From: Escherichia phage JS98
Reading direction: 5' to 3' (one strand)
Length of the DNA: 64,000 nucleotides
Sequence record: NC_010105.1
Position numbers and translations under genes: made by a program. Below the pieces are notes generated by a model. It was not told the origin of the DNA, did not search any database, and saw only the letters and a list, made by a program, of their open reading frames with translations. This document shows positions 22,069-60,766 of this stretch, piece by piece (position 1 is the first letter of the stretch; each line of letters opens with the position of its first letter).

Positions 22069-22962
22069 CTAGCATACTACGTCCTCATAACGTGGCATTT
22101 CGTATTCAGAATGAATATTGGCACCGAAATAAATGAATTCAGCCAGACCAGGATGGAATACTAAACCTGGGTTCTCATGATAAATGATATGTGGTCTTGA
22201 TTTCAGAATTTGATAATATTCAACCTTACTCGGTTTGAATTTAATAATCTCTACATCAGGACGATAGTCTTCGCGCTTAAATGAATCATTCGGGTCGGTG
22301 ATATAAAGACGAGCACCTTCAGCAGCAGCTTGGTCTACAACTCTTTCGAATTGATAGCACTTATCCGAAATACGGAATGGATGGAAAATACCATCAATTT
22401 TAATAGGCGCTAGACCTTCAGAGTAACGCTCAATTACTGCAGGATTAATTACCTTTTGGTCTACAAAAATCTTATCAGAGGATGCACCTCGTGACACCAG
22501 GACGTCTTTCTGGCATTGGTTCAGGACTGTAGTATAAAGTGAACGTTCAACTGAAGCCACATCAATATCAATGAACTCGTCGATATAATAACGAGGAACT
22601 TCAGGGTCCATTGTGATATTAAAGTTGAATTGTACAGTATGAGCACCATCATAACCTGTGATATCGGTTACCAGTCCTGAGCAATCGTAGTATTCGATTA
22701 GTGAATCGACTACAAACTCATTTTCAGACCAGAAATGTTTACGGGTTTCATAAGCATTTTCTTTATACCAAAGTGGTACGAAATTCAGTTCTGGGAATAA
22801 TTCAATGCATTCTTTGATATCGCTCGAATTTCTAGGATAAGCCAGATAATCACCTGGACGGGCACGATTTAAATGGAGTTGAAAATTACCGTCCTTAAGG
22901 ACGGCATATTCACCTGTTTCGTAACTACGCATACTGAAAATAGGAACGATAAACAAACTCAT
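22069..22962 (-). CDS. orphan 297-aa protein in the beta-glucosyltransferase slot (candidate DNA-modifying transferase)
   Basis: ATG 22962 overlaps stop of hydroxymethylase gene (ATGA); lies between uvsX and 42 where T4 has beta-gt; no resemblance to T4 beta-gt as recalled. Confidence 0.6.
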   Translation of the reverse strand: MSLFIVPIFSMRSYETGEYAVLKDGNFQLHLNRARPGDYLAYPRNSSDIKECIELFPELNFVPLWYKENAYETRKHFWSENEFVVDSLIEYYDCSGLVTDITGYDGAHTVQFNFNITMDPEVPRYYIDEFIDIDVASVERSLYTTVLNQCQKDVLVSRGASSDKIFVDQKVINPAVIERYSEGLAPIKIDGIFHPFRISDKCYQFERVVDQAAAEGARLYITDPNDSFKREDYRPDVEIIKFKPSKVEYYQILKSRPHIIYHENPGLVFHPGLAEFIYFGANIHSEYEMPRYEDVVC

Positions 22963-23657
22963 TTCAGGAAACCTCGGACGTAGTCAAAATCACGTTCAAA
23001 CACGTGTGCACTTACCATGGTGTGGGAATATGTACCCAAACCGACACCACACTGTTCAGCAATAAATGCCATCAGTTTACCCTGCAGATAGAAATCCAGC
23101 TGCATAACAACAGCACAGTTCTGCGAACGCATATGGGTGTGTGCATACAACCGTCCGTCACGAATATAATACGTTACCGAATCGGTACATGGATATTCTA
23201 AGGATTCATCAGAATCAAGGAGGGCTTGGTCTTGTTCTTGGAGAATCTGGAACACGACTCTTCGCGAGTTAGCCTTTTCTTTAAGCTCTTTAAGTAGGGC
23301 TGGGAGCTGGGCCACAATTCGAGGTCCATAGAAAGTGTTGAAGTTTGCAGGCAATACGTCACTTTTCGGCTTATCAATGAACTTAGCAACATTAGGATAT
23401 TCCTTAAATGCTTCGGCAGCGTCAGTACCACCAGAAATCATAAATTTCCAAAAGGATTCGGCATATTCATAACTAATACGATTGATACGTGGGTCGGTGA
23501 ATTTATAGGTGCTTGCATCCAGTACTTCTACAGAAGCAGAACCAATTTCATAACAACGTCCGATACGAGAATCAACTGCAAACTGTGGAGCTTCCAGGAT
23601 TTCTTCGTTCATTTGTTTAAATGCGTTTTCAAAACTAACAGCGGTAATGTGTTTCAT
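22959..23657 (-). CDS. 42: dNMP hydroxymethylase (thymidylate synthase superfamily), gene 42-like
   Basis: 232 aa; NSRRVVFQ...CTDSVTYYIRDGRLY...MRSQN core similar to T4 gp42. Confidence 0.75.
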   Translation of the reverse strand: MKHITAVSFENAFKQMNEEILEAPQFAVDSRIGRCYEIGSASVEVLDASTYKFTDPRINRISYEYAESFWKFMISGGTDAAEAFKEYPNVAKFIDKPKSDVLPANFNTFYGPRIVAQLPALLKELKEKANSRRVVFQILQEQDQALLDSDESLEYPCTDSVTYYIRDGRLYAHTHMRSQNCAVVMQLDFYLQGKLMAFIAEQCGVGLGTYSHTMVSAHVFERDFDYVRGFLK

Positions 23658-24190
23658 TTATTCACCTTATTTTCAATATATTCGTTCAGACGTTTTAATT
23701 CTACCATATCAACATTAAGCAAATTATTATGGCCGTCATGGTTTAAGATTTTAAACACGTTTTCAAAACATGTTTCGTATTGCCGGATAGTTAGGTTGAA
23801 CTCATCTTTGGTTAATTTAATAAGGTCGTCTTCGAAGTCTTCGTCTAATGGATTACGAGTTAAAATAACCTCGATAACGTTAAATTCGGATTTAAACCCT
23901 TTCCAATCTTCCAGTTCTACATAAGGGTCCATTTCACCACGAAGGAATCCTGAGTAAACAATATTACTTGGATAACCACGGTCAAGGATATAAACGAAAT
24001 TAGGGTCTAAAAACTTATACAGAGTTTCAACTAAAGCCTTATCGTTATCAGTTCCTAATGAAATACACTTGCCATTAATCTTTTTAGGAAAATCAATAAG
24101 GCGGTATTTCTTATTGGATAACAGATTTTTAATTAAAGTGGACTTCCCGGAATTATCCGGGCCGTCTATAACAATGATTTTTGGATTCAT
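23654..24190 (-). CDS. P-loop kinase (dNMP/nucleoside kinase-like)
   Basis: 178 aa; Walker A GPDNSGKST; DRGYPS (DRY-like) motif; ATGA coupling at both ends. Confidence 0.6.
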   Translation of the reverse strand: MNPKIIVIDGPDNSGKSTLIKNLLSNKKYRLIDFPKKINGKCISLGTDNDKALVETLYKFLDPNFVYILDRGYPSNIVYSGFLRGEMDPYVELEDWKGFKSEFNVIEVILTRNPLDEDFEDDLIKLTKDEFNLTIRQYETCFENVFKILNHDGHNNLLNVDMVELKRLNEYIENKVNK

Positions 24191-24570
24191 GGATGATAGG
24201 CCTTATAACTATCAAGAGTTCCTTCACGAACCATTTCTTTAAAGTGGTCAGGACGGATTGCTCGGTCATCGATGATAAAAGTATAACTCGGCTTGTGTGT
24301 AAGCAAATTGTGATATTTCAATCCAATTTTTTCAAGGTTCTTAACCAATGCAGGAACTACTTCAACCAAGATTCGACCTGGGCCACATGAAGTCATGCCA
24401 CGGGCGGTGAACAATGTAATCTCGTACCCTTCATCATAAAGCTTATTAATCATGGACACCATTTCGGTGTCCGGTTTAAAGTTCTCATAATCACGGTCAT
24501 GGTTCCAAATCGTGATTGTGTTATCGATATCAAAACATAAATGTGGCTTATTTTCTACTCGATGCGACAT
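24187..24570 (-). CDS. HAD-superfamily phosphatase
   Basis: HAD motif I CFDIDNTIT, motif II LFTAR; start placed at ATG 24570 (TAATG coupling); 24585 is alternative. Confidence 0.6.
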   Translation of the reverse strand: MSHRVENKPHLCFDIDNTITIWNHDRDYENFKPDTEMVSMINKLYDEGYEITLFTARGMTSCGPGRILVEVVPALVKNLEKIGLKYHNLLTHKPSYTFIIDDRAIRPDHFKEMVREGTLDSYKAYHP

Positions 24571-26243
24571 TAAATTTTCTTCCATTGTTTGTGGAGTTCA
24601 GTAGAACCTGTAGGTTTATATTTTACACCAGTTTCCTGGTCAAGCAAAACCCACTTATCAGGACAACGAGTAATAATTTGGGCCGTAATAGGGTCACGAA
24701 CTTCATCGACAAATTCACCCGTAATAAGCTTACGCTTACGAGGATGCCGCTTCAGCAGCACACTCAGTTGGTACAAACCGTTATAATAAGCACCCAGAGC
24801 TTTCAGAGGGTTATTCTTAAAGTACCCTGCCAGAGCCATCCAAATAACAGCAATCCAGAGCTTGTGCTTAAATGTGCACATAGGGATATCGTCTAAAGGC
24901 ATAACCTTTTCGATATCAACGAATACACGAGTTCCGTTACGAGTTAATCCACCCCATAGAGGGTCTGAGTTAAATTTGTCATAGCCATCGATAGAATAAA
25001 GCACCTTAGCTTCATCATAAATCGCAGGGCCTTTAGAACTATTACCGAAATAACCACGTGGGTCGATGATTTTAATATCACCTTCGTCCGACAGCATAAT
25101 ATTACTGTAGTGCGGGTCACCATGAATAAGTTGGTACGGTTCTTTATGTTCAGACAGAATTTCTAGTGCATGGCGAAGAAGTTTTTCAGGGTCGCCTACT
25201 TTGAAATCGTTAACATGGGTAATGCCTTGTGGAGCAAAGCCTTCAATCAACCCAGCAATAGAAGCATTACGAATAAGGACCTTGTCCAACACTTCTTTCT
25301 TAACATCAGAATACCATTGTTCATCGGACGGGTTATCAATAGTTCCACCAAATGAACGTAATGCACTAATGACCTTATAAACCATGAGGACTTTAGTTTC
25401 TTTGGACATAAACCGGTATGCATCTGCCATGGTACGACCAAAGATACGTTCCATTTTAATGAATTCGCCTGGAGAAAAGTCTACAATGCTAGGAACGAAT
25501 TCAGAATCAATAGAATTATACCAATTGATTTCTTTAGATTGAATTTCTTTACCTAATTCGTTAGTTGGTACTTTAATAGCCAGATTCTCGGTGAACTCTA
25601 ATTTATTAAATTCACGGTTAATTTCAGAATCTTCATGGGCTTTAGCCAGTTTCAATTTGTCACCGACATCAACTACAAAGTCCAGTTTACGTTCAGTCAA
25701 ATAGACCATTGAATCCAGGTTATCGGCAAGGTCTTCACCATAATTAGAACGGTCGAAACCTGTCCAATTGGCCACCTGATACAAACCAACTACGCCACCG
25801 CCCGTACCAATTTCACGTAAGTACGGTTCTTCAAATGTAAAACGACAGTCAGTTCCATAGGTATAACAGTAGTCATTACCCCATTCAACTTTATGACCGA
25901 TAGGAATGATGTCACACCAGTTAAACAGGACATTATGGCCAATGATATCTTCGGCAATACAATCGATAGCATGAGCTGAACCATTAGCAACATCAACGTT
26001 ACGAATAGTGAATTTAGGCTTATCACCAGTAATCATATTAATGGATTTAATATAGCCTTTAACGAGGTCGTTAAATTTGCTGTGAATAACCAGAATAATT
26101 TCATCTGATTGGTTACTATACAAATCATACAAATGCTTTAATACCGTATGTTGTTTGTAGTTAACCAATACCTTCGGGATTTCGTTAGTAATTGGATACA
26201 ACCGTGAGCCAAGACCTGCGCCTAAAATAACAACCTTTTTCAT
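24570..26243 (-). CDS. bifunctional sugar-phosphate nucleotidyltransferase / APH-ChoK-like kinase
   Basis: N-terminal MKKVVILGAGLGSRLYPIT (RmlA/MurU-type NTase); C-terminal HGDPHYSNIML...IIDPRGY (Brenner kinase motif); ATG 26243 with SD GAGGAA. Confidence 0.65.
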   Translation of the reverse strand: MKKVVILGAGLGSRLYPITNEIPKVLVNYKQHTVLKHLYDLYSNQSDEIILVIHSKFNDLVKGYIKSINMITGDKPKFTIRNVDVANGSAHAIDCIAEDIIGHNVLFNWCDIIPIGHKVEWGNDYCYTYGTDCRFTFEEPYLREIGTGGGVVGLYQVANWTGFDRSNYGEDLADNLDSMVYLTERKLDFVVDVGDKLKLAKAHEDSEINREFNKLEFTENLAIKVPTNELGKEIQSKEINWYNSIDSEFVPSIVDFSPGEFIKMERIFGRTMADAYRFMSKETKVLMVYKVISALRSFGGTIDNPSDEQWYSDVKKEVLDKVLIRNASIAGLIEGFAPQGITHVNDFKVGDPEKLLRHALEILSEHKEPYQLIHGDPHYSNIMLSDEGDIKIIDPRGYFGNSSKGPAIYDEAKVLYSIDGYDKFNSDPLWGGLTRNGTRVFVDIEKVMPLDDIPMCTFKHKLWIAVIWMALAGYFKNNPLKALGAYYNGLYQLSVLLKRHPRKRKLITGEFVDEVRDPITAQIITRCPDKWVLLDQETGVKYKPTGSTELHKQWKKI

Positions 26244-26303
26244 TATCTGTTCCTCAAGTGAATGTAGGTACATTATACACTATTTTTAATAAATTTCTAT
26301 TGC

Positions 26304-26804
26304 TTAAATCTTATCTTTACCGTATTCCATGCACTGTTCTACTGCAGCAGGCACTTTGGTCTTAAGCTTGTTGATTTGTTTCTTATAATCACGGGCCTTA
26401 TCGAAGCTCTCGGTTTCGAGCATTTCGTAATAACGAGCCTCATGGACAGAAATCTGTAAATTGATATGGTTTACACACATAGAATACAGTTTCTGCTTTT
26501 TGTACAAATCATCTTGGCGCTTCATTTCTGCCTGGTGTTTGGCTAGTACCGCTTCACGCTTAGACTCTTGTTCACGTTGGAATTCGATTTCCCTTTGAGC
26601 ATATTTTGCACAGTTATTACCACATTGATTATTAGCTCGGGTGTACACAAGTCCAGAACCGGCACGGAATTTCATTTCGCCGTCGAATTGTTTCTGTTCA
26701 GCTGCGATACGAGCTTTACCAACTTCATCAGCAGAAACTGCACCACCGTATTGGACTGCGCAACCTGATAGGAGCATACTCATTGCGATAATTAACTTTT
26801 TCAT
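26304..26804 (-). CDS. putative lipoprotein
   Basis: 166 aa; MKKLIIAMSMLLSGC lipobox. Confidence 0.5.
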   Translation of the reverse strand: MKKLIIAMSMLLSGCAVQYGGAVSADEVGKARIAAEQKQFDGEMKFRAGSGLVYTRANNQCGNNCAKYAQREIEFQREQESKREAVLAKHQAEMKRQDDLYKKQKLYSMCVNHINLQISVHEARYYEMLETESFDKARDYKKQINKLKTKVPAAVEQCMEYGKDKI

Positions 26805-58309: not shown

Positions 58310-58609
58310 TTAGAAAGAACCAGAACCTTTAATTGTGTTCTGGCGACCTTTATTTTCCAATTCGGAGTGGTCGATTTCGTATGCTTGGGCTACACCAAAG
58401 GCTTTTTTAACTTTAGCTAAAGAGCCTTTAGATGTAACAATATTAAAAGTATTACCTTTAGTAAAATCAACCAAATCCACTTGTACGCCCTGTTTACCGA
58501 GGCTTGCTACAATAGCATCAACATATTCTTGGTCTAAGGTGCCTTGGACACCTATTTGGAATGCTTTAGGAGCTTTGGCTTCTGTAATAAATTCTTGATA
58601 AGTTTTCAT
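58310..58609 (-). CDS. capsid internal protein (IPII-like) with N-terminal capsid-targeting sequence
   Basis: 99 aa; MKTYQEFITEA leader. Confidence 0.7.
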   Translation of the reverse strand: MKTYQEFITEAKAPKAFQIGVQGTLDQEYVDAIVASLGKQGVQVDLVDFTKGNTFNIVTSKGSLAKVKKAFGVAQAYEIDHSELENKGRQNTIKGSGSF

Positions 58610-58651
58610 ATTATTCCTTAAGTTGATAGAAGTATTCTATCACGGATTTAA

Positions 58652-59068
58652 TTAAGCGTAAATAGCCTTGCCGTAGTGTTTGTACCAGGTAGGACGTTGT
58701 GCAATTTTTTCGTCCAAACGAGCTTGTGAAATAGCGATAGAAGCTTCGTGAGGAACATAATCACCACGGAATTCCTGAGGAATATCACTAATGTCCTGGA
58801 CCGTAGTATCCTTGATATTAAAGCCACGTTTTAAACATTCGGCTATAAGCTCGATTTGACGCTTACGTAAAAATTCAAGCTTATCATAAAAGAATGTAAC
58901 GTGGCCTGTACCAAGGATAAAAGTAGGGCTGATTTTAAAATCACGAACACGTTTACCGTTAGCAACATGCTTACGAACTGCACCGAAAACACGTGGTAAT
59001 TCACGATATTCAGCCATTAAGTGTTGGTCAGCCAATTCAGATACTAAGGTAAGGTTGATACGAGTCAT
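58652..59068 (-). CDS. denV: endonuclease V (pyrimidine-dimer DNA glycosylase) DenV
   Basis: 138 aa; [34 protein letters not shown] near-identical to T4 DenV as recalled. Confidence 0.95.
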
Positions 59069-59095
59069 TTTTAATCTCCTGTAGTTGATAGGTCT

Positions 59096-59124
59096 ATAGT
59101 ATCATGCCTACAGGAGAAGTAAAC
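59096..59124 (-). promoter_or_regulatory. early promoter (GTTTAC-N17-TACTAT)
   Basis: upstream of denV. Confidence 0.6.
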
Positions 59125-59523
59125 TTATTTGTAAGTTTTCATCCAATTCTTGAACAGAGCTGCAACGTCTTTCTCTTTAACGTTCAATTTAACGTCCAGC
59201 ATTTTGCCACCGGCGGCACGTGTCTGACGAATCTTGGCCGTACCGGTTTCGCCATTCCACTCAACATAATACTGCCCGGTGTTCATAGCGATACCATCGC
59301 CATAGTCTTCGTTCTTAGAAGTAGTGAATGCCAACTTCATGGTCTTAGAGACACGGGCCTGCATGCCTGTCTGCAGAGCGTTACGAACGCGAATAACCTG
59401 AGGAGTGGCCTGGGTTAGGTTCTCGTTCAGTTCTTCGGTGAACTCTTCTGATTCAAACATTGCCAAAAGTTCAGCGGGCGCCGGGATTACAGCTTCGGCG
59501 ATAAATTCATTATAAGTTTTCAT
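59125..59523 (-). CDS. capsid internal protein with N-terminal capsid-targeting sequence
   Basis: 132 aa; MKTYNEFIAEA leader. Confidence 0.65.
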   Translation of the reverse strand: MKTYNEFIAEAVIPAPAELLAMFESEEFTEELNENLTQATPQVIRVRNALQTGMQARVSKTMKLAFTTSKNEDYGDGIAMNTGQYYVEWNGETGTAKIRQTRAAGGKMLDVKLNVKEKDVAALFKNWMKTYK

Positions 59524-59563
59524 ATAGGTCCTTTAAAGGTAAATGTGTTTAAGTATAGGCTTA

Positions 59564-60160
59564 TTAATTACCACGGGCTGCATTAGCAACGGCGTAAGCG
59601 TACTGAATATTAGCGTCTTTAAACGTACCTTTAGAGGTATCTAGTTCTGCCTTAAAGCCGGCCTTAGTCATAACATCGGCAAATTCTTTACGGAAAGCCA
59701 TTGTATCAAGACCTTTCCATGCTGATTTATGCTTGGCAAATTCAAGACCAGCGAAGTTGACTGCTTTAGCCAATTTATTATCAATAGTCCATTTACCTGC
59801 TTTAGGTACAAATACCGGACCTTTCTGTTTAGAGAACAGTTTTAAATTCCAGCGACGAAGGTCGCCGTCGGCTTTAACAAAAGCTGCGTCCAAGTTACTA
59901 GCAACAACATCTTGAATATGGCCAAATTTAAGCCCATCAGCTTCAATATTTAGGTCGTTACGCCAGCGAAGTCCTTCCCAGGCGAAAGCTTTAAAGTCGG
60001 AAGCTTTTGTAGCTAAATACCGTTCAATAGGAGCTGTTTTAGCGTCAAAGCCGTTTCCTGGGTTGTCAACGCCGTTTCCTCGGTAGGTCCACTCATCTTT
60101 ATTAATGCCTTTGACCTTTCCTGCAGTAGCTTCGGCGATAAATTCTTTATACGTTTTCAT
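59564..60160 (-). CDS. capsid internal protein (IPIII-like)
   Basis: 198 aa; MKTYKEFIAEA leader. Confidence 0.7.
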   Translation of the reverse strand: MKTYKEFIAEATAGKVKGINKDEWTYRGNGVDNPGNGFDAKTAPIERYLATKASDFKAFAWEGLRWRNDLNIEADGLKFGHIQDVVASNLDAAFVKADGDLRRWNLKLFSKQKGPVFVPKAGKWTIDNKLAKAVNFAGLEFAKHKSAWKGLDTMAFRKEFADVMTKAGFKAELDTSKGTFKDANIQYAYAVANAARGN

Positions 60161-60212: not shown

Positions 60213-60241
60213 ATACTATCACAATTCTAGGAGATGTAAAC
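60213..60241 (-). promoter_or_regulatory. early promoter (GTTTAC-N17-TAGTAT)
   Basis: upstream of IPIII-like gene. Confidence 0.5.
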
Positions 60242-60246
60242 TGCTT

Positions 60247-60735
60247 TTATCTATAAGCAGCCCAAGTACCTGTTTTAAAGGTGGCAATAACACGCTTGGC
60301 ACGATTCGGGGTTTGCTTGTACCAACGAGACTGCGCCAGGTTAACTGCGGCATCATCCCAACGTTTCTGTTGGAGCATACGCAGAGAGTTGGTAAATCCT
60401 GCTACACCAGCTTCGCCCATTTGGAAGACCATATTAATCAATGCGCAACGACGAACTTCGTCCAACACATCATAAACCGGTTTCAATTTAGGATTGCGCA
60501 TTATAGCTCTACGAGCATTTTCCACTGAACGATTAAAGAGCTGTTCAGCTTCAGCCATAGTAATACGACCATTACAAACTCGACCCATAAGCTTATCAAG
60601 TTCAGCGCGAGCAACATCTTTAGATGGGTTCTTGGTAACTAACTGGCCTATACCAATAGTCCAATAACCTTCAGTGTCTTTATAAAGATTTAAATCAAGA
60701 CCTTCGTCTTGACGTAACATATCAAAAATATCCAT
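60247..60735 (-). CDS. e: lysozyme (endolysin) e
   Basis: 162 aa; [30 protein letters not shown] and C-terminal two-thirds near-identical to T4 lysozyme as recalled. Confidence 0.95.
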
Positions 60736-60766
60736 AATTACCTCCTGATTATAGGAGGTATTTATA
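60736..60766 (-). promoter_or_regulatory. late promoter TATAAATA plus SD-sequestering hairpin upstream of e
   Basis: minus strand TATAAATA-CCTCCT-ATAATC-AGGAGG-TAATT-ATG; inverted repeat pairs with the SD. Confidence 0.6.

Follow-up and report, generated by a model that had tools for sequence, protein, structure and literature searches.

Escherichia phage JS98 was analysed in a stretch of 64,000 nucleotides of its genome (NC_010105.1; the whole stretch is hereafter called the window) with regard to the genes of internal proteins (Ips). Quite probably the neighbourhood of the lysozyme gene e and of denV is a hotspot, in which three cassettes code for internal proteins that are packaged in the head and injected with the DNA, and the middle cassette gives a protein of 132 amino acids (aa), which represents an unnamed family and whose likeliest role is to inhibit a first-response nuclease.

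Three minus-strand open reading frames (ORFs) have the appropriate N-termini. The first of them in the direction of transcription (59564–60160) encodes 198 aa, begins with MKTYKEFIAEATAGK and has the leader MKTYKEFIAE (60131–60160). The middle one (59125–59523) encodes 132 aa, begins with MKTYNEFIAEAVIPA and has the leader MKTYNEFIAE (59494–59523), while the last one (58310–58609) encodes 99 aa, begins with MKTYQEFITEAKAPK and has the leader MKTYQEFITE (58580–58609). Both the coordinates and the N-termini reported in the initial annotation were therefore reproduced. A six-frame scan of the whole window with the pattern MKT[YF].[ED]F[ILV].E returned exactly these three ORFs, and a looser pattern had no matches in 100 shuffles of the 64-kb sequence. 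Along transcription the gene order is nudE, e, ipIII, the 132-aa gene, denV, the 99-aa gene and vs.8. Assignment of the entire span 58310–60160 to internal-protein genes, as proposed initially, is correct for these three genes but overlooks denV (58652–59068, minus strand; Pfam Pyr_excise, E 1e-14; phrog_1183, E 9e-63), which is a housekeeping gene for endonuclease V interleaved with them and the right-hand anchor of the variable slot. Its left-hand anchor is the gene e (60247–60735, minus strand; Pfam Phage_lysozyme).

Leaders and mature domains of the three proteins

In T4 the capsid-targeting sequence of IPII and IPIII is MKTYQEFIAE. Experiments with the IPIII leader showed that Tyr4 and Phe7 matter for targeting, Ile8 and Glu10 for cleavage by the prohead protease gp21, which cuts after L/I-x-E, and ten leader residues by themselves are enough to package foreign proteins (PMC9026906). 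The leaders found in the window match this sequence at Tyr4, Phe7, Ile8 and Glu10, so that their previous attribution to the T4 capsid-targeting type is well founded. Tyr4 and Phe7, the determinants of targeting, are present in all three, and the processing motif at residues 8–10 reads I-A-E, I-A-E and I-T-E, respectively, with Ala as the next residue in each case.

Beyond the leaders the proteins have nothing in common. BLASTP alignments among them are confined to residues from 1 to approximately 11–16, and after removal of the first 10 residues the best alignment was no better than E=11, which is in line with the earlier statement that the mature regions are mutually unrelated. The same boundary is seen in DNA: ipIII and the 132-aa gene are alike in 31 of the 33 bases of codons 1–11 and in 19 of 25 bases upstream, and in 5 of the 27 bases directly after. 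In their capsid-targeting sequence, gp21 site, small size, hypervariable loci and mutually unrelated mature domains the window genes resemble Ip1 (IPI*), Ip2 and Ip3 of T4.

The 198-aa protein is 86% identical over its full length to IPIII of the T4-type phage RB55 (BLASTP, E 1.6e-128), matches phrog_5341 “internal virion protein” (E 2e-114) and was found in 259 phage records; judged by this similarity, it is an IPIII/Ip3 ortholog. The 99-aa protein matches phrog_2667 “internal head protein” (E 5e-43), is 95% identical to the product of the VR7 gene annotated as ip7 and 50–52% identical over 97 aa to Ip7 of T2 and CC31 (50% for T2). Since its mature part does not align with T4-type IPII, where BLASTP similarity is limited to the leader, it is not IPII and on the basis of homology is to be placed in the Ip7 family. 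The Ip7 proteins of T2, CC31 and VR7 share the phrog_2667 family with it and, as here, belong to leader cassettes swapping among T-even genomes; however, T2 and CC31 carry ip7 at the ipI/57B locus, whereas the window gene is located downstream of denV. A target for Ip7 was not reproducible in the study of Silas et al. 2025 (PMC12373910). The three genes are thus not the plain T4 set, but a combination of IPIII, an unnamed family and Ip7.

An unnamed family in the middle of the locus

The window phage is a Dhakavirus of the JS10 type; its locus is 98% identical to that of Escherichia phage JS10 (Dhakavirus, Straboviridae), where the 198-aa gene is annotated as ipIII. The 132-aa protein is 100% identical to YP_002922461 of JS10 and matches phrog_15461, a family with function unassigned, from end to end (E 2e-91). 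It was found in 48 of 50,697 phage records, in each of which (48/48) the annotation is “hypothetical protein”. Even in very large collections the family is small, with 17 clusters in 5.8e9 proteins and 7 representatives in 1.84e9. No match to the 132-aa protein was registered in Pfam or PADLOC and no significant sequence match in PDB. Weak hits to P0021 and P0022, which are beta-propeller or secreted repeat proteins (E 4e-5 over approximately 35 residues), and to a flagellin from PDB (E 0.02, 18 bits) were judged to be compositional or beta-hairpin noise.

Every detectable relative of the 132-aa protein has a leader, including those with 40–55% identity from Serratia phage 4S, Erwinia phage Cronus and metagenomes, where it takes the forms MKTYKEFLAE, MKSYNQFLDE and MKSFDQYIME. 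The most suitable reading of the protein is therefore that it belongs to the injected internal proteins, a known class, as a member still to be named; its family may coincide with one of ip4–10, the polymorphic Ips of Repoila et al. 1994. The novelty ascribed to it by the initial annotation stands in one respect and falls in the other: what is new is the recognition of this family as internal proteins, while the sequence itself was already in the databases, though uncharacterised.

The middle gene lies between ipIII and denV, i.e. in the position of ipII in T4, and in RB55 (order e, ipIII, ipII, denV, vs.8) its slot is occupied by ipII. This position is what could make one regard it as a highly diverged allele of T4 ipII, for which there is practically no chance. 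In BLASTP comparisons with IPII and with the other leader-bearing proteins considered, the 132-aa protein proved to be unrelated beyond the leader (approximately residue 15). True IPII homologs are present in Marfa and IME08 and are distinct from both the 132-aa and the 99-aa protein. In Marfa the 132-aa family stands beside an IPII with 93% identity, and four leader families (132-aa family, IPII, IPIII and Ip7) are found together, so the gene belongs to a separate family and is not an ipII allele. Co-occurrence in Marfa and the lack of similarity thus refute the allelic interpretation, and the earlier suggestion that the middle gene has no T4 counterpart is supported by the absence of T2, T4, T6 and the RB phages among the 48 carrier records.

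Gene order was compared in seven loci. In phages of E. coli, Klebsiella, Serratia and Erwinia and in a metagenomic contig the family gene, denoted X in the following orders, always belongs to the e–denV neighbourhood. It is e, X, ipII, denV, ipIII, ip7 in Marfa; e, X, denV in Serratia 4S, Cronus and the metagenomic contig L011; and e, ipI-like, denV, an 84-aa Ip, X, ipIII in HMD-9. The start codon of X overlaps the stop codon of the late gene e in Marfa, 4S and L011. The 84-aa gene of HMD-9 (L006 3177–3437) is probably annotated 6 nt too short, and its true start would give MKMYQEFIAE.

Direct replacement is seen in IME08, a phage of the same genus, which has a single ipII in place of the window's ipIII and 132-aa gene. 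Identity in the flanks of the two loci is 90% for e and 96% from denV onward, and a leader of 34 bases is the sole internal match. This replacement is a cassette exchange of the kind described for T-even ip loci by Repoila et al. 1994, as far as that work is cited in PMC3012670 and PMC12373910.

JS10 also has genes, located beyond the window itself, for the protease of head maturation (gp21) and for three proteins of the core (gp22, gp67 and gp68). In the JS10 RefSeq record an unannotated leader-bearing ORF of 97 aa starting with MKTYQEFIKESTDLY was noticed outside the window (L014 8494–8787, approximately 70493–70786), at the classical ipI locus, where a gap of 650 bp separates trna.4 from 57B; phages of the JS10 type therefore carry at least four internal-protein genes. 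Across the window (1–64000) no tRNA genes or Rfam families were found at the gathering threshold, the tRNA cluster of JS10 being situated approximately 5 kb past the window end.

Predicted processing and selective constraint of the 132-aa protein

Three parts can be distinguished in the 132-aa protein. The leader, residues 1–10 (59494–59523, minus strand), in which Tyr4, Phe7, Ile8 and Glu10 do not vary within the family, has a predicted gp21 cut after Glu10 according to the criteria of PMC9026906. It is followed by a variable acidic segment, residues 11–34 (59422–59493), with an isoelectric point (pI) of 4.05, 7 acidic and 0 basic residues, ending in L-N-E|N, and then by a conserved basic core, residues 35–132 (59128–59421). 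An (L/I)-x-E motif just before the core is found in almost every branch of the family, its forms being ELNE|N, INE|N (Serratia 4S) and LTE|S (the metagenomic protein P0019); in Cronus (P0018) the leader's own site stands four residues ahead of the aligned core. Because gp21 cuts after L/I-x-E, a second cut after Glu34 is probable; it would remove the acidic segment as a second propeptide and release a core of 98 residues. Removal of this segment shifts pI from 8.2 to 9.9, leaving 16 K+R against 8 D+E.

P0019 (Logan SRR14654591, contig L011, 4041–4625) is encoded between e and denV. Behind one leader it has a domain homologous to the 84-aa Ip of HMD-9 (34% identity over 67 aa, E 2e-10), then LTE|S and the core. 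HMD-9 encodes these modules in two neighbouring genes, and P0019, to judge from its domain composition, has arisen as their natural fusion, with a single leader in front and L-T-E|S as the joint.

The ratio of nonsynonymous to synonymous substitution rates (dN/dS) in the core is 0.011 relative to Marfa (dS 2.8) and 0.016 relative to HMD-9 (dS 0.8), which means extreme purifying selection and therefore a real gene. In the acidic segment it is 0.10–0.16, i.e. about 10 times more relaxed than in the core, and in the leader it is about 0.06. The last value bears on the idea that the leader is merely left over from cassette recombination, and the protein is cytoplasmic and never packaged. Packaging of the family is predicted, and T4-early-like promoter matches exist in the locus, both of which suit this idea. 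Nevertheless it is very improbable, since the leader, with all of its key residues, is kept in every relative down to 40% identity and evolves under purifying selection, and in T4 its ten residues alone carry foreign proteins into the head (PMC9026906). The C-terminal ...NWMKTYK* (59128–59142) was also considered as a scar of leader recombination; homologs vary here (MKTHK, MKSYK, MKVHK or none), and the resemblance is probably a coincidence.

A packaged protein might also have a structural or physical role, neutralising, condensing or ejecting DNA. The basic character of the predicted mature core (pI 9.9) fits such a role, very strong purifying selection and the conserved genomic slot across four host genera are compatible with housekeeping, and lysines of T4 internal proteins contact DNA phosphates (PMC3012670). 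However, only 48 of approximately 680 T4-like records matching the region carry the gene and IME08 manages without it, so it is dispensable. In addition, internal proteins of T4 are non-essential, and all four proteins of this kind with a known function are anti-restriction factors. A structural role is consequently rather unlikely, though it deserves more credence than the leftover leader.

The 132-aa gene has a GC content at third codon positions of 0.52, the top value for the minus strand of the window, where 77 ORFs have 90 aa or more (median 0.35, next 0.44). The copies of Marfa and HMD-9 have raised values too, and those of Serratia, Erwinia and L011 do not. Horizontal origin or codon selection may be the reason.

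The structure model of the 132-aa protein is of moderate confidence (predicted local distance difference test score, pLDDT, 55–64) and suggests a helix-sheet-helix fold of the core. When PDB was searched by Foldseek with the full-length model, no hit fell below E 0.1, and the search of BFVD with the family returned only its own Serratia 4S member. Small helix-sheet-helix inhibitors, such as the TriTu immunity protein (PDB 7zhm_D), PsiB and AcrIIA11, do match the model (pLDDT 64), with 3–10% identity; frataxin and Mediator subunits match it too, the topology being common. The likeness to TriTu, PsiB and AcrIIA11, as far as such a model can tell, is a resemblance and not evidence of homology.

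Transcription and translation signals

The sole exact late-promoter consensus nearby, TATAAATA (60766–60759, minus strand), is located upstream of e. No terminator-like site was predicted on the minus strand between the e promoter and position 59125, and no promoter-like site of its own was found for the 132-aa gene, as early-type matches precede other genes only. Since the only late consensus precedes e, and neither a terminator nor a separate promoter was detected, the 132-aa gene is probably co-transcribed with e and ipIII. It has a good ribosome-binding site (RBS), AAAGGA, which lies in unstructured RNA.

Matches to T4-like early promoters (GTTTAC/TTTACG, 16–17 nt, TGnTAnnAT) precede ipIII (60213–60240), the ip7-like gene (58634–58662) and denV (approximately 59085–59120). 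They are consensus matches only, and shuffled sequences have at least as many sigma-70-like sites as the region does.

Two genes of the neighbourhood have their RBS within RNA structures. That of e is sequestered in a hairpin (60733–60766, minus strand; −14.1 kcal/mol, z −2.8), and TATAAATA directly adjoins the stem on its 5′ side. In T4 only those late transcripts of gene e that start inside the hairpin are translated, and the hairpin of the window resembles that one. The RBS of denV (GGAG) belongs to the 3′ arm of a 10-bp hairpin, CUCCUGUAGG...CUACAGGAG (59075–59117, minus strand; −18.1 kcal/mol, z −3.1), with the early-type promoter match in and around it. This hairpin could keep denV untranslated on read-through transcripts coming from the ip genes.

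Possible function of the 132-aa protein

Ip1, Ip2 and Ip3 of T4 each inhibit a different type IV restriction enzyme of the GmrSD type with no cross-protection (PMC12373910, PMC9391042). Ip3 is needed on strain ECOR17 and inhibits the two-gene GmrSD of this strain, the GmrS1/GmrSD2 system (PMC12373910). The fourth precedent, Bas37_0260, described in the HIDEN-SEQ preprint 2025 (10.1101/2025.11.20.689424), is a leader-bearing inhibitor of McrBC; like the window proteins it has the T4-type leader (MKTYQEFIAE) and comes from an ip hotspot, and it extends the targets of Ips beyond GmrSD. Direct transfer of its anti-McrBC function was rejected, since none of the three window proteins aligns with it outside the 10-residue leader. 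Type IV restriction is thus the target of every leader-bearing protein characterised so far, four in number, and it is reasonable to expect, by analogy, an anti-defence role for the 132-aa protein as well, as was initially suggested.

The leaders, the unrelated mature parts, family membership, gene order, cassette exchange and selection were demonstrated on the sequences; packaging, both cleavages, injection and an anti-restriction role are what we infer for this system. The 10-residue leader would dock each product onto the scaffolding core of the assembling prohead, gp21 would cut after Glu10, and the mature protein would be retained in the head with DNA and injected into the next host. For the 132-aa protein the second cut, after Glu34, would shed the acidic propeptide and leave the 98-residue basic core (pI ~9.9), which could act at the moment of DNA entry as a stoichiometric inhibitor of a first-response nuclease, for instance a type IV restriction enzyme.

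At 22069–26804 (minus strand) the window contains a module that differs from the one in T4. It is placed between uvsX and DNA polymerase, in the position taken by beta-gt and gene 42 in T4, and is composed of a thymidylate-synthase homolog (22959–23657), a P-loop kinase, a fusion of nucleotidyltransferase with APH-kinase (24570–26273) and uncharacterised ORFs, and this list of parts matches the arabinosyl-5-hydroxycytosine cluster of RB69 (PMC13326640). Since it does so, DNA of the window phage is probably not modified with glucosyl-hydroxymethylcytosine; the arabinosyl-5-hydroxycytosine pathway was predicted for Dhaka- and Marfaviruses (PMC13326640). The possibility that the 132-aa family tracks this pathway was rejected, because HMD-9 and Cronus have the family together with classical gene 42 and alpha-gt (HMD-9 also has beta-gt).

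Several observations weigh against an injected nuclease inhibitor. Phages that carry the family differ in their DNA modifications, and it is therefore not tied to one modification-specific nuclease. The core is near-invariant between phages with saturated synonymous sites, which is atypical of an arms-race gene and unlike co-evolution with a fast-diversifying restriction enzyme. No late-promoter consensus is present directly upstream of the ip genes, so that late expression must come from read-through of the e promoter. The structural resemblances discussed above are generic. Silas et al. (PMC12373910) obtained no reproducible targets for ip4–10, i.e. not every Ip need inhibit GmrSD. Finally, a search of the literature by accession, locus tag and phage name found no virion proteomics or expression data for any member of the 132-aa family. 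Compared with Ip1–3, the protein differs in a mature domain without similarity to theirs, in the additional acidic segment with the second predicted site and in being far more conserved than is expected of an arms-race inhibitor.

A near-invariant core in phages with varied DNA modifications makes a conserved target possible, or the structural DNA-associated role considered above. In its most specific form this would mean that proteins of the 132-aa family, once injected, inhibit a factor conserved in Enterobacterales, either of defence or of the host cell, and are processed in two steps, with the acidic propeptide masking the basic core until gp21 removes it in the prohead. We regard this version as tentative and less likely than not. 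Less credible than a structural role is an effector that is injected and acts on a conserved target of the host outside restriction, either in another immunity pathway or in host takeover resembling that by the Alt ADP-ribosyltransferase. Although the conservation of the core leaves room for such a target, this effector is doubtful: neither catalytic motifs nor domain matches were found, the fold matches come from a model of moderate confidence with a very common topology, and every functional precedent is a type IV restriction inhibitor. Inhibition of a first-response nuclease by an internal protein that enters the cell with DNA thus remains the preferred explanation, and quite a probable one.

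Implications for the internal-protein class

As a discovery of principle these data are modest, since the phenomenon of leader cassettes has been known since 1994. Internal proteins are, however, the first phage molecules that meet the host cytoplasm, and most of their families are without an assigned target. A family with 98 mature residues is now flagged as belonging to them, and several of its 48 carriers are candidates for phage therapy against Klebsiella, E. coli and Salmonella, so that its role in host range is directly testable. Conservation and predicted two-step processing are the features likeliest to teach something beyond one more GmrSD inhibitor. If the 132-aa protein is indeed masked and directed to a conserved target, it would add a new class to the targets of T4-type internal proteins and a new example to the masked effectors that are packaged.

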